DNA of 64,000 nt from Promethearchaeota archaeon (GCA_019057795.1 JAHLWS010000043.1:1-64000); one strand, 5' to 3'; shown: positions 49,182 to 60,512, counted from the first letter of the stretch. Numbers and translations are program-made. Notes: a model not told the origin generated them from the letters alone.

Positions 49182-50330
49182 TTATTTATTTTCTAATTGC
49201 CATTTAAAACGCCTTTCATTCCATTCTTTAGCTTTATCGGGTTGCCCTAACTTCTGATAACAAAGAACCATAGATTCCCCAAAATCTAAATCAGAGGGAT
49301 CGAGCGAGATACTTTTTTTAAAATGTATTAAAGCCTTTTTATAATCATTCTTTACATCGCAATAAATTTGACCTAATTTCTTATGAGCATTAGCATTATC
49401 TGGATCGGATCTAAGAGTGTTTTGAAAATATATTATGGCATTATTAAAATCTTTTAAAGCGCTATAACTAATTGCTAAATTTTCATATAATATCGCATCT
49501 TCTGACTGTAGGTTCAAAGCTTGTTCATAACATTCTACCGATTCCTTGAAGTTATCATTAAAAGTGTGTGATAATCCTAAGTTATTCCAAGCTTCTACGA
49601 AATGAGGGTCGAGTTCTGTTGCCTTTTTGTAGCATTCGATTGCTAAATCGTAATCATTTTGTTCATAAACAACATCTCCTAAATCAAACCATAATTCGGC
49701 GTTAAACGGATCGAGATCAAGCGCTTTTTTATAGTACCTAATCGCCTCCTCATAATTTTGAATGCTATAATAAATAATAGCAAGATTATTGTACAATAAT
49801 GGTTCGTCGGGGTTAATGTTTAGAGCCTTTTCATAGCACTGTATCGCCTTATCGTATTGCTCGTTTTCTTTATAAATTAAAGCGATATTATTCCAAACAT
49901 CAGTGTATCCCGGATCATATTCTAAGGCTATTTTATAAAATTTTAACGCTTCGTCGTATTCTTCTAAGTCTTCGTGCGCAAATCCTAAGTTATAGTAAGC
50001 TATTGCATCATCGGGTTCTATTTCAATTGCTTTTTGGTAGCACTTTATTGCTTCTTTATACTGGCGCACCATACTAAATGAGAGCCCAAGATTATTCCAA
50101 ACTTCAGAAAAATAAGGATTAATTTCAATAGCTTTTTGGTATGACTCTATTGCATAATCGTACTTGTTTTCGTCGTAATAAGCATCTGCTAAATTAATCC
50201 ACGCATCAGCGTCGTTAGGATCTAATTCTGCTGACTTCTTATATCGCTCAATCATTTTATAAATCAGATATTTCTTAGAAAAAAAAAACGTTTCATTCCT
50301 ATTATTTTTTTGGAAAATTAAAAAGTTCAT
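49182..50330 (-). CDS. TPR-repeat protein
   Basis: Multiple 34-aa WNNLG...AIECY.KA repeats; true start probably MIERYKK. Confidence 0.92.
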   Translation of the reverse strand: MNFLIFQKNNRNETFFFSKKYLIYKMIERYKKSAELDPNDADAWINLADAYYDENKYDYAIESYQKAIEINPYFSEVWNNLGLSFSMVRQYKEAIKCYQKAIEIEPDDAIAYYNLGFAHEDLEEYDEALKFYKIALEYDPGYTDVWNNIALIYKENEQYDKAIQCYEKALNINPDEPLLYNNLAIIYYSIQNYEEAIRYYKKALDLDPFNAELWFDLGDVVYEQNDYDLAIECYKKATELDPHFVEAWNNLGLSHTFNDNFKESVECYEQALNLQSEDAILYENLAISYSALKDFNNAIIYFQNTLRSDPDNANAHKKLGQIYCDVKNDYKKALIHFKKSISLDPSDLDFGESMVLCYQKLGQPDKAKEWNERRFKWQLENK

Positions 50331-50336
50331 TAATTA

Positions 50337-51377
50337 CTATTTATTAATTATCATTTTATCTTGAATTTGATTGGTTAATAAAATTCTTAGGTAACTTTTA
50401 TCGTTTCTGAACTTTACTTCTTCTAATTTACCCGTAACTAACACATTTTCACCTTTGATTGCTTGCTCGCAAAATCTTCCTCTAAACGAATTAATTTCAT
50501 TAAGATTCTTTAAATTTATATTCTTTGGAATAATTTTGCTCTCTAAAACTTTTAAATGCTCTATTTTATAAGAACAAGGAGTAAAAATCGAATTGGTTGA
50601 ATCAGTAATTTTTGCTTTAATTTTTATTCTCCCTAAATTCTTGAATTTATAATCGTAATAAGTTCCATTCCAATCTTTAGGACTTTTAATATACCTTATA
50701 AAAAAATCAATTCCATGAAATTTTCCTTGGTGTAACTTCTTTTTTTCACTTTTCAGAAAATCCTTGAAGCTAATATCAGACCCTCCGACTCTCCATTTAT
50801 AGTGAGTTTTATATTCCTCTAAATTATACATTCTACAATTGTTTGAAGCCTGAAAAATATTTTTTAATTTATCTTGAAATTTTAAACTAACTTGAGTACC
50901 ATATATAACTATGTCAATATCTGAGCTTTTTTTATTTAATCCAATCATAGGGGACCCAGATATCCCAATAGAATTTTCCGGAATATCACCCTTATGTAAT
51001 AAAAGTTCACATAGATTTTTAGACTGAATTTCTGTTTCTGTTAATTCATTTTTATCTTTAAGCTTTTTAAAATAGGCTCTAGGAGTGTAAATTTGTTTTA
51101 TATCTTCTAATTTGACTCCTTGAAGTTCTAAACCAATATTTTTAGAAAAGAATAGATATTGAGGATATTGCTCTCTTAATTTTGAGTACCTCTCATCGAG
51201 CGAATATATTTTTTTAAATTTAATGTCATCCTTTATTCTATCTCCATTTTGATCAGGATAAAATCTTAAAAAACAAATCTTACGATCAGGGGGGTGATGA
51301 ATACCTTTTATATCAAAAAATAGATGGTCTTGTTTTGTTTCAAGGTAGTCTCCTTCAATTCCTTTTGGAATTTTCAT
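50337..51377 (-). CDS. predicted nucleotidyltransferase (archaeal)
   Basis: GISGS...SDIDIVIYG. Confidence 0.8.
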   Translation of the reverse strand: MKIPKGIEGDYLETKQDHLFFDIKGIHHPPDRKICFLRFYPDQNGDRIKDDIKFKKIYSLDERYSKLREQYPQYLFFSKNIGLELQGVKLEDIKQIYTPRAYFKKLKDKNELTETEIQSKNLCELLLHKGDIPENSIGISGSPMIGLNKKSSDIDIVIYGTQVSLKFQDKLKNIFQASNNCRMYNLEEYKTHYKWRVGGSDISFKDFLKSEKKKLHQGKFHGIDFFIRYIKSPKDWNGTYYDYKFKNLGRIKIKAKITDSTNSIFTPCSYKIEHLKVLESKIIPKNINLKNLNEINSFRGRFCEQAIKGENVLVTGKLEEVKFRNDKSYLRILLTNQIQDKMIINK

Positions 51378-51390
51378 AGGTATCCCAAAC

Positions 51391-52494
51391 TTAATATTTT
51401 GAAGGGGTTTTTGATTTGATTTTATATTTTGGAATCTCTTTTATTTTTCTTAACTCTTTTTCAAAATCTCGCTTTTCTCTAAGAAATCTCTCTTTATCAC
51501 TTTTTAATTTTTCTCTTTCTCTTCTAATTGCCTGTTTTTCATTCTGTATCATCGATTTTTCTTTTTCCAATTGTTTAGACTCATTTTTTAATTTTTTAAG
51601 CTTATTCTCTAAATTACGAATTTTATGTTCTAAAGAATAATAAGTATCTTCTGCTTTCGGAACTTTTCTATCTAATTCCTTTAATCTTGCTTCTTGCCCT
51701 TTTTTCTTTCTTCCTAATTCTCTTACATCACGATCTACTTTCTCTTTATACTTGTTCAATCCTTCTTTTTTTTTATCAACTTCACGAGATTGAAGATTTA
51801 ACTCTTTTTTTTTATATCGAACTTTTTCTTTTTCATCTTTTAATTTTCTTTTCTCATCCTCGATTCGATTTTTTTCATCTATTTTTTCTCTTCTCAAACT
51901 ATTGATTTCTTTGGTTAGATTATCTCTTTCTCTCGTTAAATTCTTAATTTCATTTCTCAAATCCATTAATGCGTTTTCCAACTTTTCATTAGTTCTTTCT
52001 AACGCAATTTCTCTCCGTTCCATACCTGGTATTTTAGTTTTAATTTCTTTAATTCTATCTTTTGCTCTTTCTTTTTCTTTTTCTAAATATTTATTCTCAC
52101 TCTTTATCTCATCTTTTAATCCTTGTAGTTTCTCTTGATATCGTTCTAAGTTAGCATTTTTTTGATCTAATTCCCTTTCTCTTAAAGCTATATTATCTCT
52201 ACTTTGCTTTATTTCATTTCTCATAGCGTCTAATTCATTTTTTAATTTTTCACGTTTATTTTGTAGGTTTCTCACTTGAAGTTCTTTTTCTTTTCTTTTC
52301 TTTTCTAAATCTTCAATATTTTCGTGGTATCCTTCAACTTTTTTAATAACCTGTTCCCATTCGTTTTTCTCTTTGTTCAATTTAGCTGTTTCTTCCTTAA
52401 TTTTTTTGAGTAATTTCGCATCTGGAATAACATCTAATTGCTCTTCAGGTGTTTTTTCTCGAATTTGGTATTTAGGAATGGGTTTATCATTCAT
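51391..52494 (-). CDS. long coiled-coil protein
   Basis: About 330 aa E/K/R heptads with matching IPKY-KTP motifs at both ends. Confidence 0.85.
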   Translation of the reverse strand: MNDKPIPKYQIREKTPEEQLDVIPDAKLLKKIKEETAKLNKEKNEWEQVIKKVEGYHENIEDLEKKRKEKELQVRNLQNKREKLKNELDAMRNEIKQSRDNIALRERELDQKNANLERYQEKLQGLKDEIKSENKYLEKEKERAKDRIKEIKTKIPGMERREIALERTNEKLENALMDLRNEIKNLTRERDNLTKEINSLRREKIDEKNRIEDEKRKLKDEKEKVRYKKKELNLQSREVDKKKEGLNKYKEKVDRDVRELGRKKKGQEARLKELDRKVPKAEDTYYSLEHKIRNLENKLKKLKNESKQLEKEKSMIQNEKQAIRREREKLKSDKERFLREKRDFEKELRKIKEIPKYKIKSKTPSKY

Positions 52495-52666: not shown

Positions 52667-53077
52667 GTGTATCTAATGGGTTTTGAGGAAGATAATAACG
52701 AGGAATTTGATGAAGAATTTGACGAAGATCTAGATGAAAACCTTGAGGAAGAATTAGATGAGCCTTCTACAAAGTCCCCCACGGAAGATTTTACAGTTAA
52801 AACTCCAGATGATAAAATCTCACATGAAGGAAAAAAGATTTCAGTGTATTTTCTATCAACCATAGGACCTGGTGAGAAAAAACAAAAATTACTTGTCTAT
52901 ACTGGAAATTTAGTAAGAGATATAAAAGAGACTGTAGCAAATTTGTTTGCTTTAGATCCTGCTGACTTTCATCTCTCATCCGGGGGAGTTACCATGGATG
53001 AGGGTAATCAATTAAGTGATTATAATTTGTCTGATGGAGACGATATATTACTAATTCCAGCTAGCGTTGCTGGTTGA
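52667..53077 (+). CDS. ubiquitin-like (beta-grasp) protein with acidic N-terminal extension
   Basis: VRDIKE...LSSGG...LSDYNLSDGDDILLIPASVAG*. Confidence 0.85.
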   Translation: MYLMGFEEDNNEEFDEEFDEDLDENLEEELDEPSTKSPTEDFTVKTPDDKISHEGKKISVYFLSTIGPGEKKQKLLVYTGNLVRDIKETVANLFALDPADFHLSSGGVTMDEGNQLSDYNLSDGDDILLIPASVAG

Positions 53078-53092
53078 ATAAGTTGGAAGGAT
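52931..53092 (+). repeat. direct repeat copy 1 (Ubl 3' end)
   Basis: 128 of 147 coding nt identical to 60351-60497. Confidence 0.95.
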
Positions 53093-54141: not shown

Positions 54142-54258
54142 ATAATAAACCTGAAATTAATTTTACAACGCCTTCTCAAGGTAATATATCAATTTATAAA
54201 CAACTACATTATTTTTGAGATGAGGTTTATGATAATCCTACAGATTTATAGAGAAAAT

Positions 54259-54987
54259 TTAAGGAAATTGAAGGGTATTTAAAAACGATTTTGGAACTGT
54301 TCTGGCAATAGTTACTAGTTTAAATTTTATGAAATTAGATTTTGAAAGTAGTTCGATAATTCGACCTAAAGTATAACCTTGATGGAAGACATCATCAAAT
54401 ATTAACAAAGAACTGCCTTTTTCTATTTGCTCTAATAAGTCTACTGATTCCTCAAGTAAAAAGTACTTGTTATTCACATAATCTTTTCTATCTTTGTAAA
54501 AAGTTGTACTTGTTTTTTTTTCGAATAACTGATTATAAGGGATCCAAGTTAGGTTTATATTCTGAGATATTTCAGAAAATAAATTTATCATTTGTAAATT
54601 AGTTGTGGGAACCATTGTTGCATAAATTATATCCTCAATTTGCCAGTCCGAATTTGAAATTTTTTCGTTAAGAATTAGCTTTAGAATTTCATGGGAGTGT
54701 TTAAAGGGTTGCAAGCTGATTTTCCTTAATATATCTCCAAACCAATTTAAAGGATTTCCCTCATAATCTGTCTCATAAAAATGACCAGTTATGAAAGAAA
54801 TTTTGCTTTCAAGTGACTCTATACCTGAATGACATTCTTTTGGTTTATCTGAAACATTAGGGTAAAAACAAACTGGACATATTGATTTGTATTTATTTTT
54901 TAGAGCAAACTCTTCATTTGTGTCAGTATTTTTAATTATGATATCCCATGGGTCAAATCCTTTTAAATAACGAAAAGGCATATTCAT
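54259..54987 (-). CDS. ComF-like phosphoribosyltransferase-fold protein
   Basis: LLIFDDVFHQGYT PRPP-loop-like motif; CPVC...CH. Confidence 0.7.
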   Translation of the reverse strand: MNMPFRYLKGFDPWDIIIKNTDTNEEFALKNKYKSICPVCFYPNVSDKPKECHSGIESLESKISFITGHFYETDYEGNPLNWFGDILRKISLQPFKHSHEILKLILNEKISNSDWQIEDIIYATMVPTTNLQMINLFSEISQNINLTWIPYNQLFEKKTSTTFYKDRKDYVNNKYFLLEESVDLLEQIEKGSSLLIFDDVFHQGYTLGRIIELLSKSNFIKFKLVTIARTVPKSFLNTLQFP

Positions 54988-55706
54988 TATAAGATAGCTT
55001 GTGATAATAATTGTAGAAATTTAAGAATTATATTAGGTTTATGTTTTCCATATATTAAAATCGAACCGTTTTTATCAATTCTAATTGTAATCCATTTATT
55101 TTCTTGATATAACCCCTTAATTTTAATAGTTATCGCTTTTACTTGTTCTGATTGTTTAATAAGTTCAGTAATAATACCAAGTTCGTTAACATCATTTGCA
55201 TGTATATTTAATTCGTTTATTTTATCCGCTTCTATATAAGTCCTTTTAAGAATGAGTCTATGGATTTTTAAGGTAAGACCACTATTTTTTATTGATAGTA
55301 ATTTTTTCCAAACTTGCCATAACTGTTTTTCGTTAAAGATAATTGATTTAGAATCAGCTATATCACGTAAATAGACCTGTAATAAATGTTCAATCTTTTT
55401 CTCGGCTTTTCCAACTAGCAATAATTGATTATATTTTAAAATCAATTTTTCATGATTAATCCACAGAGTCTGTTTATCTTGGAACTTTTTATACTCTTCT
55501 ACTTTCATTTTAATCACAGATTTTTGCTGTATTGGTTCGAAAGAAAGATTCCTATAAGATTTTTTAGCACTTTCTACAAATAACTTTAGGGTTTGAGGAT
55601 CATCTTTATTCACTTTTACCTTACTCAAGACATCTTCATCTTCAAGATTATTTAGAGCATATTTTTCATTAATTTCTAATAATTGAAATGATGGTATTTT
55701 AATCAC
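54987..55706 (-). CDS. hypothetical protein
   Basis: 239 aa, stop overlaps next start. Confidence 0.75.
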   Translation of the reverse strand: MIKIPSFQLLEINEKYALNNLEDEDVLSKVKVNKDDPQTLKLFVESAKKSYRNLSFEPIQQKSVIKMKVEEYKKFQDKQTLWINHEKLILKYNQLLLVGKAEKKIEHLLQVYLRDIADSKSIIFNEKQLWQVWKKLLSIKNSGLTLKIHRLILKRTYIEADKINELNIHANDVNELGIITELIKQSEQVKAITIKIKGLYQENKWITIRIDKNGSILIYGKHKPNIILKFLQLLSQAIL

Positions 55707-55718
55707 ACTCTTAAATTT

Positions 55719-57401
55719 TTATATTATTATATTATTTATATCAGTTAAAAATGCATTATCTAACCTAATACGAGCAACCGGATTTGTTGTATATGGGGGA
55801 TAACCTTGACCTCCATGATTGTATTGAAAATTGAAAATTGTATTGCGAACATTTTGAATTGAACGGTCTGGATGGTTCATTGCATCTTGGTTTCCTATAA
55901 TAATTAATTTTTTCTTTGCTCTGGATAAGCCCACATACATCAGATTGAATTGTGTAAAAAAATCAGATTTAGTTCGTGGTCGAGCAAAGGTTAATGAATA
56001 TATAACTGCTTCTGCTTCTTGTCCTTGATATTGGTGTACTGTCCCAGTTCTGACATTATGATTCATAAAAATCTCAACTTGAGGTCTATAAGGGGCCGTT
56101 AATATTATATCCTCATTTGATAATACTTGATAAGCATGTCTCAATGCATAATAAACCCCGAGCGCAATCTCAGCTTCACGCTCATTTATCCTTGATCTCC
56201 CGACTGTTCGATCTAATGCTTGAGGAATATCAGAAGTATCTAAAATCACAAGAGGATGGTCAGGCTTCAATATTTCATCTAAAACATTCAATGTTTGTTG
56301 ATTAAGATTCGGAATATTATTTAAATCATAATTAGTTCTTGGTAGTACGTAATCATTTGAGGTTGTTGGAGCATCAGGAATGACGGTTCGAGGTATGGGG
56401 AGAATTCTTTCAGTTATCTGTGCTATTGCGGGATGCATTCGATATTGTCGATGTAATTCAATTCTTCTATCTATTGGAATAGGAATATTTTGATAAGTAT
56501 TCATTCCCTGTAAATATGATAGCGCGCTGACACCTAATGGAGCTAATGTAGATACAGGAGGTAATTGCTTATCATCACCGATCATACAGATGGATTGAAT
56601 TGTATGCGTGGGTATAACTTGGTAAAATTGAGGAACAGTCAATTGACTAGCTTCATCGTATATAACACCTCGTACTCTGACATTCGATCTGGGATCATTT
56701 GTTAATATTGAAAGTGAGTCAGTAGTACCAACAAAAATTAGGACCTCTCCCAATATTGCATTCCAATCTCTTTGTTGTATAAAGGTGTTACTTGGCATTC
56801 TATTATTAATAATAAAGTCATCAGGATTTAAATTTAGTCTTTGGTGTAAAACCTGAAAAGAATAAGAATCTTGAGCATACTGGGATTGTACTAATTTTAT
56901 CCTCTCAAAATAATCTGGTGTATTTGCAAGTGATGCTATTTCATGGAATTTTTCATAAATTCTGTACGCTCCAGCATTCGAAAAAGTAGCAATGAAGACT
57001 CGTTCTGGTTGACCCCTATCTCTCCTAGCTCTTAAGAGATTTCCTGGTGTAAATACTCGAAGTGCACTTCCGGAACATATAACATGTGTCTTTCCCGTAC
57101 CAGGTGGGCCTATTACTAATGTTGAAGCAACCACCTTTCGACTAATATGAAAATTATTTCCAGGATCAGTAAATGTATGGATTTGTTCTGGAGGAACGTT
57201 ACTTATACGGGCGGGTAATTGAGTTGATCTTTTATTTTGTGGAACATTTTCAATGGGATCTCTTATAGCTCGTACTGCTCTTCTCTGTTCAGAATTGAAC
57301 GGAATAGTAGGTCTTATAAACTGGACTAGCCCTGTTTGAGCATTAAGACTCTGCTCTAAAAAGTTATACAAAACCTCTTCCCAATTATTTATTTGAGCCA
57401 T
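55719..57401 (-). CDS. SF1B (Upf1/Dna2-like) helicase
   Basis: NSEQ, GPPGTGKT, SNAG, DEASQ, GDDKQLPP, QYRMHP, PYRPQ, TVHQYQGQE, VGLSRAK. Confidence 0.92.
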   Translation of the reverse strand: MAQINNWEEVLYNFLEQSLNAQTGLVQFIRPTIPFNSEQRRAVRAIRDPIENVPQNKRSTQLPARISNVPPEQIHTFTDPGNNFHISRKVVASTLVIGPPGTGKTHVICSGSALRVFTPGNLLRARRDRGQPERVFIATFSNAGAYRIYEKFHEIASLANTPDYFERIKLVQSQYAQDSYSFQVLHQRLNLNPDDFIINNRMPSNTFIQQRDWNAILGEVLIFVGTTDSLSILTNDPRSNVRVRGVIYDEASQLTVPQFYQVIPTHTIQSICMIGDDKQLPPVSTLAPLGVSALSYLQGMNTYQNIPIPIDRRIELHRQYRMHPAIAQITERILPIPRTVIPDAPTTSNDYVLPRTNYDLNNIPNLNQQTLNVLDEILKPDHPLVILDTSDIPQALDRTVGRSRINEREAEIALGVYYALRHAYQVLSNEDIILTAPYRPQVEIFMNHNVRTGTVHQYQGQEAEAVIYSLTFARPRTKSDFFTQFNLMYVGLSRAKKKLIIIGNQDAMNHPDRSIQNVRNTIFNFQYNHGGQGYPPYTTNPVARIRLDNAFLTDINNIII

Positions 57402-57421
57402 AATTTTTCTGACCTAATATA

Positions 57422-59170
57422 TTATACATATCTTGCAAATCTACCAAATGTGGCAACTCCAACTCTTTTATATCGCTCATCTAATCTACGTTCTAGGATA
57501 TCGTCTGGGCTTAATGGATTTCCAGACCGCTCAGAAAATTGGATCGCTCTAATTAATTGCTTCTTTTGTCTCTTTATGTTAAAAATATCTTCGGTAATTG
57601 ATAGTTTTCCGATGATACAATTAATATTATTCCCTCCGCCTACACTTGCCAAGTTATAAGGATTGTTTTGAATCCATGGGTTCATAGGAACTATAGGATT
57701 TATAATATAATCATTATTAACTAACCTTCTCTCGAATGATATCTTACAGTCACTTTCATAACATAAAGGGGACATCAAACAGACATCATATTTTCTATCT
57801 GAAACTTCAGGTAAAGTCCAGTGATTTGGCATTGAAGGGTGAAATATCCATTGCTGTGTATTATCTTGATATATCTCTCCAATCCAAAAACTTGAGAATT
57901 GATTTAGATCAAATAGTTGTAATGGAAAAAGTCTTGTAATTTTAAACAGTGTTTCGTGTTTAAATACAGCTTCATCTCTTAGATACCTTAAGAATTTGTA
58001 AACATTTGATTCCACTCGGTCTCTGGGAAATTGTTGATTGCTAATTCGTCTATCTTTCATCCCACACCCTTGTGTCCCACCTATTGGACAAAAGTAATCT
58101 CCTGGTATGTTTTGACCAATTTGGAAAGGACAAGGATTGAAACCTTGAAATGAATTCACTATCCCTGGATAATTTGAATATAAAAAATTTAAAATGATTG
58201 CAGCTTGTCCAGTTTCATTTTTAAAATTCTGTGTGGGATTCATTCTAATTGAATGATCAATAGTGTCTACGATAATATCAAACTCTCTAAAATTAAAATT
58301 ATTAAGATCATAATATGAACTGAAAATAACATTATCCATTGCATCATAGAGTTCGAGAGGAAGTTTTTGATTCTCCACTAATTGTGCTAAACTTTCTCTC
58401 AATATCCACATTTTATGAAATTCTTTAATGATAAAAAATAATCTAATTCCCTCTGGTGTGTTTATATTATCTCTTAGATCTATGGGAGGATCGAAAAAAT
58501 TATCTGCAATTGGAACTGGTACACGAATCTCACGATTTTTCAAGTGAATTATGGGAATAATTCCCTTGATAGCTATAAGTCCCCTCCAGTAAAAACTATT
58601 TGCGGGTCGTTGCGAGCCAATTCCGATATTTGCTCGTCTTAATTGGGTGAGTGTAACCCTTGTATTGTCTGACCTGTAGATATTAAAATCTTCATTTAAT
58701 ACATTCAAATTGAATAAGACATCACGTGACGAATGATATCTATCTAAAATATTCTCATTATTTAAGCGTTCTAAATACTGGCTAATATAATTCATAGTTC
58801 TTATATCAGAGTCTTCAGGATCTGAGTTTCCTCTAATGGAATCGAGAAGTTGTCCTGGGTCTCTGATATTCCTCATTATCGAGTCGGGATAGGTGCTTCG
58901 TGCTAATGCCCGCATCAAAACTACCGCAAACTCCCGAAATCTAGACTCAAAATTGAAATATTGCGGAAATTCTTCGTTTGGGTCATTTGGGTTTACCAAT
59001 AATCCACCCCACCTCGGAAAACTACCTCTTATCAATTCAAGAAATCGCCATCGATAACAAGGATTGCAAAATTCATCAACATCCGCAAAAGGGAAATATT
59101 TAAGATTAAAAGGTGTCCAAACTCCATCTAATATCGTTCTCTTTGATGCTCTCTTGAAACTTCTACTCAA
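57422..59170 (-). CDS. hypothetical, possible Cas4/Dna2-like Fe-S nuclease-fold protein
   Basis: N-terminal DVDEFCNPCYR and distal CPF...CP...C cluster. Confidence 0.5.
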   Translation of the reverse strand: MSRSFKRASKRTILDGVWTPFNLKYFPFADVDEFCNPCYRWRFLELIRGSFPRWGGLLVNPNDPNEEFPQYFNFESRFREFAVVLMRALARSTYPDSIMRNIRDPGQLLDSIRGNSDPEDSDIRTMNYISQYLERLNNENILDRYHSSRDVLFNLNVLNEDFNIYRSDNTRVTLTQLRRANIGIGSQRPANSFYWRGLIAIKGIIPIIHLKNREIRVPVPIADNFFDPPIDLRDNINTPEGIRLFFIIKEFHKMWILRESLAQLVENQKLPLELYDAMDNVIFSSYYDLNNFNFREFDIIVDTIDHSIRMNPTQNFKNETGQAAIILNFLYSNYPGIVNSFQGFNPCPFQIGQNIPGDYFCPIGGTQGCGMKDRRISNQQFPRDRVESNVYKFLRYLRDEAVFKHETLFKITRLFPLQLFDLNQFSSFWIGEIYQDNTQQWIFHPSMPNHWTLPEVSDRKYDVCLMSPLCYESDCKISFERRLVNNDYIINPIVPMNPWIQNNPYNLASVGGGNNINCIIGKLSITEDIFNIKRQKKQLIRAIQFSERSGNPLSPDDILERRLDERYKRVGVATFGRFARYV

Positions 59171-60015
59171 TCTAAATCACCCCATGGTATTATTTTAATA
59201 TTCAAATCTACCATCCTTACATATACTAATTCGTTTATAATGTCTGCAATTTCATCTAATTCCTCATCCATAGTTTTATCACACTTATTGTCTGACTTTA
59301 GTTTCAGATATTGTGCTAAAATAACTCTTTTAAATATTGGTAAATCGTCATACTTGTAAATTATTTTTTCTTTTCTTATTTCAAGTAAAGATATAATCCA
59401 CTTGAATAATAAATGTAGAGAAAGGACAATATCAATCTCTTCATCACTCAATTTGGAAAAAAAAGACTTAAAATCTTCTTCATACATATCCAATTGATAT
59501 CTAGCATAATTAATTAGTGTTGCATCATCGGTATCGTCATTCTCTTCATCAAATAGATTATCATAAAGCAATTTTTCTAAACTTGAAGGAATGCAGATAT
59601 CATTTGATGCAATAAAAGATATAAACCCATGGTATTTCCGATCTTTTCTCCATTTTTCCATTAATGTCTTATCTGTGGATATGAGTTCATATAAATGTTT
59701 ACAAATGGTATTAGGGCTAAAGGGAATGATTCTAAATACTTTTTTTGATGTTTTGCTGATATTTTCAGTCTCATTTGGTTTATCTTTTTTTTCAGATAGA
59801 ATTTTTATACAGACGGGAAAATCCTCATCGGGGTATGTTTCTTTCAAGTTCATTAAAATAGCCCATAATTTAGATGCTAAGAGCTCTTGTTTTATTTTTG
59901 AATAATTAATATTGAGATTGAAATGAGGACAATTGCTATTAAATGACCCTATAAGTTTTTCAAGTTCTTTTTTAGGTGTATTTAAAAGAACTTTCCTTAA
60001 TTCCATTTTGTCCAT
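59167..60015 (-). CDS. hypothetical helical protein, first gene of operon
   Basis: 282 aa; 4-nt overlap with next gene. Confidence 0.75.
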   Translation of the reverse strand: MDKMELRKVLLNTPKKELEKLIGSFNSNCPHFNLNINYSKIKQELLASKLWAILMNLKETYPDEDFPVCIKILSEKKDKPNETENISKTSKKVFRIIPFSPNTICKHLYELISTDKTLMEKWRKDRKYHGFISFIASNDICIPSSLEKLLYDNLFDEENDDTDDATLINYARYQLDMYEEDFKSFFSKLSDEEIDIVLSLHLLFKWIISLLEIRKEKIIYKYDDLPIFKRVILAQYLKLKSDNKCDKTMDEELDEIADIINELVYVRMVDLNIKIIPWGDLD

Positions 60016-60350
60016 ATTTCCCTAGAAGAGATAGAATACTTTTATATAAAAACATTATTAATACATATTTAATATTTTAAAAAAATCAGAGATGAGACTG
60101 ATTTTCTAATTTTATTTATAAACGTAAGAAGAAATAAGAAACTTATTCTACTTTATTTTTATTTTTTATTTTATTGTATTATAGCATCGTTTTTGCTCGT
60201 TTTTAGATTATAAAAGATTTTTTATAAAAGTATCTACTAGTAAATTAAAATTTTTTCCAAAGCATTTTATGTACTATTGCTTTTGATTTTCACACATCTC
60301 TTGCATTTTCTTCTCTCTAAAAAACTCTAAGGATTAAAAATGGAGATTTT

Positions 60351-60512
60351 ACTGTAGCAAATTTGTTTGCTTTAGATCCTGCAGATTTTCATTTATCTTC
60401 GGGGGGAGTCACTATGGATGAAACTTCGATGTTAAGTGATTATAATTTGTCTGATGGAGATGATATCTTACTAATTCCAGCTAGCGTTGCTGGTTGAATA
60501 GGTTGGAAAGAT
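60351..60512 (+). pseudogene. 5'-truncated Ubl copy / direct repeat copy 2
   Basis: TVANLFALDPADFHLSSGGVTMDETSMLSDYNLSDGDDILLIPASVAG*; no in-frame start. Confidence 0.9.

Follow-up and report, generated by a model that had tools for sequence, protein, structure and literature searches.

A cassette of five consecutive genes, here called A to E, lies on the minus strand (positions 54259-60015) of a 64,000-nucleotide stretch of DNA from a Promethearchaeota archaeon (GCA_019057795.1, JAHLWS010000043.1:1-64000), referred to throughout as the window. These genes are best read as a helicase-plus-effector defence cassette matching no named system: a single operon and accessory module that moves between Asgard genomes and most likely acts against viruses or mobile elements through a sensor-effector mechanism, a reading to which a probability of roughly 0.55 can be attached. 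A defence role is proposed because of the genomic context of the cassette and the type of effector that it carries.

The five open reading frames (ORFs) are tightly coupled (Table 1): A and B overlap by 4 nt and D and E by 1 nt, while gaps of 20 nt and 12 nt separate B from C and C from D, respectively. All ORFs proposed by the initial annotation, a note made from the sequence alone, were confirmed, with no gap or overlap above 20 nt. A search of other genomes for the same gene order, which that annotation had put forward as a check, recovered the order A-B-C-D-E in at least nine other loci, namely the metagenome loci L004, L006, L007, L008, L009 and L010 and three genomes (L015, L016 and L017) of the same taxonomic family and another genus, in which B is about 20% and C about 32% identical (20-33% overall). 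Because the five-gene order is kept at such divergence, far beyond chance, the cassette is considered to be a functional unit. Relatives of its proteins carry the source labels Odinarchaeota or Helarchaeota, which marks the host as an Asgard archaeon.

Gene B has no match by sequence in Pfam (E up to 1), NCBIfam or PADLOC and no usable one in PHROGs; the PDB gave none either, both for B alone and for its family profile, and no sequence match to the Cas4/RecB profiles PF01930 and PF12705 was found, its likeness to these nucleases being one of fold only. The family is very small, with 24 proteins in a set of 5.8 billion and 24 clusters when 1.84 billion representatives were searched by profile, all full-length ones having 550-600 aa. 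An AlphaFold (AF2) model built from 17 sequences (predicted local distance difference test, pLDDT, 63.7; predicted template modelling score, pTM, 0.68) was compared with known structures by an all-against-all structural search (VIA Z scores) over residues ~23-340, and by Foldseek. Matches were obtained with RecE (Z 11.5), MGME1 (Z 11.4), the nuclease domain aligned in AddAB (3u44_A, Z 11.2), AdnA (Z 10.7), Cas4 (Z 9.8 and 9.4), ACE1 (Z 8.8), Exo5 (Z 8.0), SSO0001 Cas4 (Z 7.9) and RecB (Z 7.5). According to the model, gene B does have a Cas4/RecB/Dna2-class PD-(D/E)xK fold at residues ~23-340; the AlphaFold and Foldseek check set beforehand on this point found the fold present (Z 7-11.5, Dna2 Z 9.8).

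Dna2 (5ean) aligns with the B model over 361 residues (9-528 of the model on 20-570 of Dna2, Z 9.8). As it is the only structure spanning both the nuclease fold and the barrel of B, and also the best Foldseek match (E 1.1e-3, probability 0.96), B is predicted to correspond to the N-terminal half of Dna2. The beta-barrel, at residues ~417-525, is like the 1B barrels of ZNFX1, Sen1, SETX and nsp13 (Z 5-6), and its beta-rich segment (428-521) is followed by helices (527-564) and then by a conserved C-terminal tail (R569, F575, G576). The start of gene C corresponds to the start of helicase domain 1A in Dna2. The earlier claim of a "split Dna2-like" enzyme holds as a description of architecture, with regard to the fold and barrel of B and the helicase of C, but does not establish an evolutionary fission: C is no closer to Dna2 (see below) and no fused B-C protein was found, the 1.84 billion representatives yielding no B-family match above 600 aa. 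Helicase C is encoded separately from B in every locus seen.

When 19 members of the B family were aligned, with identities as low as 18%, invariance was confined to P20, C38, G49, W255, R258, C347, C361, C369, E400, G431, R569, F575 and G576. The 1+3 cysteines (C38; C347, C361, C369) constitute the most conserved feature of the protein and flank the nuclease fold as they do in Cas4, AddB and Dna2, with a distal spacing of C-x13-C-x7-C. The N-terminal Cys pair (of which C38 alone is invariant), the three-Cys cluster, the beta-rich segment and the helix described in the initial annotation were all borne out. The first-Cys helix, C-Y-R-W-R-F, is the sole stretch that hhalign aligns with the Y-C-x-R motif of Cas4; comparison of the B family with an alignment of six Cas4 proteins gave a probability of 8% over this helix only, too little to place the catalytic positions by profile. 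The motif II strand, where G-x-x-D is expected, reads G203-I-I-P206; almost all closer members of the family keep P206, and distant ones have Q, H or D at this site. The strand that follows has E214-I-R216, both positions variable, and the family shows E/Q/H/K/N/S-x-R/K/I/V at the E-x-K site. Since the catalytic Asp and Glu-x-Lys positions are not conserved, and no core-strand acidic residue is invariant across the 19 sequences, the nuclease is probably inactive, in agreement with the earlier suggestion of a nuclease-dead enzyme. The segment 373-405 (F-P-R-D-R ... L-R-D-E, with E400 invariant) is highly conserved although poorly modelled, a combination that would fit a site of contact with a partner or nucleic acid.

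Gene C encodes, as judged from its sequence, a complete Upf1-like superfamily 1B (SF1B) helicase core with domains 1A and 2A. Motifs I, Ia, II, III, IV, V and VI of this class are all present, and GPPGTGKT, DEASQ, GDDKQLPP, QYRMHP, QGQEAE and VGLSRAK could all be read, so that the full motif set described earlier is found, with Pfam matches above cut-off (27 bits) for both AAA_12 (1.6e-22, 80.4 bits) and AAA_11 (3.9e-9, 37.1 bits). The NCBIfam model TIGR00376 (IGHMBP2 family) matches at 2e-24, and the PADLOC model MkoA at 2.4e-31, the latter over the helicase core only (C residues 270-520 on positions 817-1089 of a 1112-position model). In the PDB the matches include a SETX-like 5'-3' RNA helicase (2.4e-13), Dna2 (residues 760-1022, 7e-11), Upf1 (5e-8), Sen1 and IGHMBP2. 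By sequence, then, C is a Upf1-like helicase of a general kind, standing no nearer to Dna2 than to the rest of the class. No N-terminal accessory domain was recognised, Pfam giving the core helicase domains only, with Walker A at residue 98.

The candidate effector is gene E, which appears from its motifs and profile matches to be a zinc-knuckle phosphoribosyltransferase (PRTase) of the ShosT/PsyrT toxin type. An N-terminal C2-CH zinc knuckle (C37-x2-C40 ... C52-H53) is invariant, as are D198, D199, G204 and T206 of the phosphoribosyl pyrophosphate (PRPP) loop LLIFDDVFHQGYT (L-L-I-F-D198-D199-V-F-H-Q-G204-Y-T206), which bears out the PRPP-loop motif noted earlier in the last gene. All 13 family members match both ShosT (best 1.2e-8) and PsyrT (best 1.6e-7) in PADLOC, more strongly than any metabolic PRTase (7e-4 at best), so that the PRTase proposed as effector by the initial annotation appears to be of the defence-toxin kind. 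The type I PRTase family of Pfam (PF00156) is matched by 10 of the 13 below its gathering score (best E 0.001), and in the PDB the family profile matches HPRT over the PRPP loop (1.6e-3). ComF (TIGR00201) was matched by 1/13 members (E 0.063) and GntX by 6/13 (E at least 0.027), all far below cut-offs. Mutation of the corresponding PRTase DD pair abolishes the toxicity of ShosT (PMC11961720), and ShosTA, PsyrTA and retrons all use PRTase domains as effectors (PMC12961424). Since E matches ShosT and PsyrT in all members, keeps the DD pair and belongs to a class with known effectors in these systems, it is likely the effector of the cassette. It is a relative of the ShosT/PsyrT effector domain and no member of those systems: the ShosT hydrolase part, the PsyrT helicase part and the partner genes (DprA-like ShosA; PsyrA) are absent beside E according to Pfam and PADLOC.

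Gene D gave no usable sequence match in Pfam (including the RdgC family PF04381), NCBIfam, PADLOC or PHROGs. Its family has 17 members, and the AF2 model (pLDDT 92.6, pTM 0.87) consists of two tandem TBP/KA1-like alpha/beta domains, for which Foldseek on the PDB returned CENP-L (4.6e-6), Escherichia coli RdgC (3.4e-5), Iml3 (1e-3) and lambda RexA (4.7e-3), followed by TBP. VIA gave Z scores of 8.8 for Iml3 and, over 202 residues, 8.5 for RdgC, the CENP-L/Iml3 and RdgC fold scores being equally good, and a viral structure library yielded a series of phage RdgC-like proteins (5e-6 to 1e-4). The ESM Atlas had given sub-threshold leads to CENP-L (0.85) and RdgC (0.79), with which the later fold search agreed. 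RdgC and RexA bind DNA, RexA being the DNA-binding part of a phage-exclusion system (PMC11077077). By this fold-level likeness, D is probably an RdgC-like nucleic-acid-binding or scaffold subunit. Gene A is mostly helical, acidic and Lys-rich, and has no match in Pfam, PADLOC, NCBIfam, PHROG or the ESM Atlas. It always comes first in the cassette and is its least conserved and fastest-evolving member, with 95% identity in L005 and 25-51% in loci that are not near-identical, where B shows 35-57%.

The distribution of the cassette is sparse. Of 400 sampled genomes of the phylum, 4 contained a match to the B profile, and a sample of 36 genomes from the genus of this archaeon yielded no match; many of the genomes in these samples are incomplete. 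Comparison of the window by blastn with contigs L009 (1-3936) and L005 (104-2100) gave 98-99% nucleotide identity over the cassette, including ~100 nt upstream and 33 nt downstream of the genes, and nothing substantial in this genome matches the remaining 4.8 kb of L009. Because the identity stops at 54226 and 60116 and the flanks are unrelated, the cassette alone appears to have moved recently, which points to a recent horizontal transfer of exactly the five genes. In the window, direct repeats of 162 nt (52931-53092 and 60351-60512; 89-95% identical, spacing 7420) enclose the cassette together with a gene for a leucine-rich repeat (LRR) protein. What is repeated is the 3' half of a ubiquitin-like gene (52667-53077) with a further 15 nt, and no start codon is present in the second copy. 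Their layout resembles that of an insertion bringing a replacement 3' end, and no integrase lies between them.

Two rearranged forms were encountered among the relatives. In one protein (P0008, 751 aa), the one long homologue found, residues 1-543 of B are joined in frame to E, which starts at its residue 36, with C and D missing; this is a copy of the cassette that has decayed or been rearranged, if it is not an artefact of assembly. In the Odin-like locus L010 (5350-7224), the fifth gene keeps the zinc-knuckle N-terminus (~110 aa), and the PRTase part is replaced by the C-terminal part of an Eco57I-like methyltransferase, from motif IV (NPPF) onwards, without the S-adenosylmethionine-binding N-terminal half; either the effector has been exchanged or a deletion has fused the gene with a restriction-modification gene next to it.

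In three loci the neighbourhood has the usual look of a defence island. A type IIG restriction-modification enzyme adjoins the cassette in L008 (3.3e-54), which also has a group II intron and a transposase, and a retron-type reverse transcriptase lies near it in L016 (7e-83). Directly upstream of the distant copy in L017 (9629-16914) are a type IIG restriction-methyltransferase (1e-265) and a protein of 1352 aa whose N-terminal part is a protein kinase and whose other part is Dsr1-like (PADLOC 3.8e-37). No system model of PADLOC 2.0 or NCBIfam 20 names the cassette, in line with the earlier impression that it belongs to no named system, and no description of it was found in the literature on Asgard defence with PRTase and helicase or on defence by Cas4-like and Upf1-like proteins.

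A further peculiarity of B and C is their depletion in lysine. The genome, of 4.95 Mb and about 30% G+C, contains 1825 ORFs of at least 300 aa, among which B and C have the two lowest K/(K+R) ratios (0.29 and 0.20; median 0.70, 0.5th percentile 0.43), a stronger anomaly than the initial annotation had stated in calling the two large proteins Lys-poor and unlike their neighbours. Lys and Arg make up 3.4% and 8.6% of B and 2.0% and 7.7% of C, against 9-15% Lys and K/(K+R) of 0.81-0.88 in A, D and E. Since the third-position G+C of B and C is like that of their neighbours, the depletion does not reflect foreign base composition. It recurs in L006 (B 0.22, C 0.11), in the distant L017 (0.22, 0.16) and in part in L010, and is absent in L008 and L016. 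One idea is that it represents avoidance of lysine-directed tagging.

A working model can be proposed from these parts. B and C together would rebuild the domain series of Dna2 from two polypeptides: the iron-staple nuclease fold, the beta-barrel with its stalk, and SF1B domains 1A and 2A. Moving 5'-3' as a translocase powered by ATP, presumably non-cutting since the nuclease active site appears to be lost, the pair would serve as the sensor by threading or recognising a free nucleic-acid end or a single strand. D would bind nucleic acid beside the motor or hold the complex on DNA. Upon its release or activation, E would consume PRPP and disturb nucleotide metabolism, or would modify a base or another target, so that replication of the virus, or the infected cell itself, is halted. 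A may have a regulatory role, act as an antitoxin or be a subunit that provides specificity. A more elaborate scenario is offered tentatively, as a possibility only: an Asgard-specific immunity of a new type, in which the nuclease-dead two-piece Dna2-like motor senses the ends of invading nucleic acid and, with the aid of an RdgC-like clamp, licenses a PRTase toxin, the lysines of the motor having been purged to escape tagging by ubiquitin-like conjugation or viral counter-defence.

Several observations weigh against a defence cassette of this kind. Its flanking genes in the window encode the LRR protein and ubiquitin-like proteins and include no defence genes, defence neighbours occur in only three of the loci with enough flank, and A, B and D match no system model in PADLOC or NCBIfam. 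The B model is of middling confidence, residues 60-330 being well modelled and the Cys-cluster segment 344-404 poorly; its catalytic positions were placed by strand order and alignment, not by superposition; and its metal cluster is putative and could be Fe-S or Zn. Upf1-like helicases often act on RNA, and given this habit the substrate of B-C may be other than DNA.

An RNA target is at the centre of one rival explanation, according to which the Upf1-like helicase and the inactive PD-(D/E)xK domain would read RNA 5' ends in a Mokosh-type survey of viral transcripts or RNA genomes. DXO/Rai1 and eIF3d are readers of RNA 5' ends, and the fold matches of B include the cap-binding domain of eIF3d, Rai1, DXO and Dom3Z (Z 5.2-5.8); the best matches of C in PADLOC and by sequence in the PDB are, moreover, MkoA and the SETX-like RNA helicase. 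However, the scores of these RNA-end binders are much lower than those of the DNA nucleases (Z 9.8-11.5), the barrel is covered as well by Dna2 only, D resembles DNA binders, and the five proteins include neither a phospholipase D (PLD) nuclease nor any other Mokosh partner, so that RNA surveillance seems improbable. That the genes simply provide a housekeeping Dna2, divided in two and devoted to Okazaki-fragment processing or end resection, is compatible with the domain series and the intact helicase motifs. It is hardly compatible with the rarity of the B profile in the phylum and its absence from the sampled genomes of the genus, with the unconserved catalytic residues, with the constant linkage to a toxin-type PRTase or with the recent transfer between unrelated flanks, and was rejected because of the distribution and the loss of catalytic residues.

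The module could also process DNA for a mobile element, for recombination or for uptake, handling incoming or replicating single-stranded DNA (ssDNA) in the manner of ComFA/ComFC with RecA modulators. ComFC binds ssDNA and works with the helicase ComFA (PMC9005727), offering a parallel to which E adds a ComF-like layout, with a zinc finger followed by the PRTase, and a relative labelled "predicted amidophosphoribosyltransferase" by one source. The fold of D is like that of RdgC, a recombination-associated DNA binder, and the cassette is mobile and lies between direct repeats in this genome. Yet E matches ComF and GntX at 0.027-0.063 only, whereas its matches to the toxin PRTases reach 1e-7 to 1e-8; neither the cassette nor its island contains an integrase, a replication initiator, or a capsid or conjugation gene; the cassette moves alone, without element genes; and in two loci it is adjoined by restriction enzymes. 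On balance such a role is unlikely, and an accessory defence cassette with sensor and effector is preferred.

Comparison with known systems places the cassette beside several of them and within none. It shares with the eukaryotic Dna2 nuclease-helicase (PDB 5ean, 5eaw and 5eax) the PD-(D/E)xK fold with 1+3 Cys, the beta-barrel with helices and the Upf1-like SF1B helicase, in the same order. It differs in that Dna2 is one polypeptide and not two, in that the catalytic Asp and Glu-x-Lys are not conserved in B, in a Cys spacing other than the expected C-x2-C-x5-C, and in the lack of detectable sequence similarity in the nuclease part; in addition, the cassette is linked to A, D and E and is accessory and mobile, whereas Dna2 is universal. 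With Cas4, AddB, AdnAB and RecB, B has in common the fold (Z 7-11.5), four Cys flanking the core and, in the case of Cas4, the aligned C-x-R first-Cys helix; its lost active site, its extra segment 373-405 and beta-barrel, and the absence of a CRISPR or AddA/RecBCD context set it apart.

The PRTases of PsyrTA (RqlHI) and ShosTA are the closest to E. The PRTase matched in PsyrT forms the C-terminus of a larger protein that also carries a helicase, and ShosTA pairs a PRTase toxin with a DNA-binding protein (PMC11961720; PMC12961424). The cassette has five genes where these systems have two, and possesses the zinc knuckle of E and an SF1B helicase with a separate Dna2-like N-terminal half, while it is without a RecQ-type helicase, a DprA-like antitoxin or the ShosT hydrolase domain. 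Mokosh (MkoA/MkoB, MkoC) provides the best defence-model match of helicase C, although the match covers the helicase core only and the cassette has neither the PLD nuclease nor the N-terminal region of MkoA. The double TBP-like domain fold of D is like that of RdgC, phage RdgC-like proteins, lambda RexA and CENP-L/Iml3, but RdgC is longer (about 300 aa) and without detectable sequence similarity. ComF/ComFC are alike in layout only, having a four-Cys zinc finger instead of the C2-CH knuckle.

Asgard archaea are the closest prokaryotic relatives of eukaryotes, and little is known experimentally of their resistance to viruses. If the proposed reading is true, the cassette would be a new Asgard system assembled from parts with eukaryotic echoes, namely the Dna2 architecture, the Upf1-like helicase and the CENP-L/RdgC fold. 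It would represent a natural Dna2-type machine divided at the junction between barrel and helicase and stripped of its nuclease, and could inform on how motors are repurposed as sensors. It would also widen the set of defence modules using PRTase effectors, the chemistry of which is unsettled even for ShosT, and the lysine depletion of the motor subunits hints at a conflict over protein tagging.

The cassette is probably transcribed from one promoter, the archaeal TATA-box-like element TTTATATA (Table 1), into a single transcript with a short leader or none; this element falls within the stretch conserved with metagenome contig L005. A scan for promoters and terminators of bacterial type, ill-suited to archaea, found sites no commoner than in shuffled sequences, and tRNA and Rfam scans of the window gave no match.

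Table 1. Coordinates of the cassette genes and associated features in the window.
Feature	Position	Strand	Details
Gene A	59167-60015	minus	282 aa, ATG start
Gene B	57422-59170	minus	582 aa, TTG start
Gene C	55719-57401	minus	560 aa
Gene D	54987-55706	minus	239 aa, GTG start
Gene E	54259-54987	minus	242 aa
Archaeal TATA-box-like element TTTATATA	60043-60050	minus	read from sequence, 31 nt upstream of the gene A ATG
Predicted transferable cassette	54226-60116	minus	both ends of 98-99% identity; ~100 nt upstream, 33 nt downstream

A perfect 8-bp inverted repeat, AAAATCAG ... CTGATTTT, followed by a run of T, is located at 60080-60105 on the minus strand, ~35 nt upstream of gene A's TATA-like element, and could be a terminator of an upstream unit or an operator. 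Beside the island, at 49182-52494, three co-directional genes encode a coiled-coil protein of 367 aa, a protein of 346 aa and a tetratricopeptide repeat protein of 382 aa, the 346-aa protein showing weak matches to the nucleotidyltransferase fold (E 0.002-0.004).

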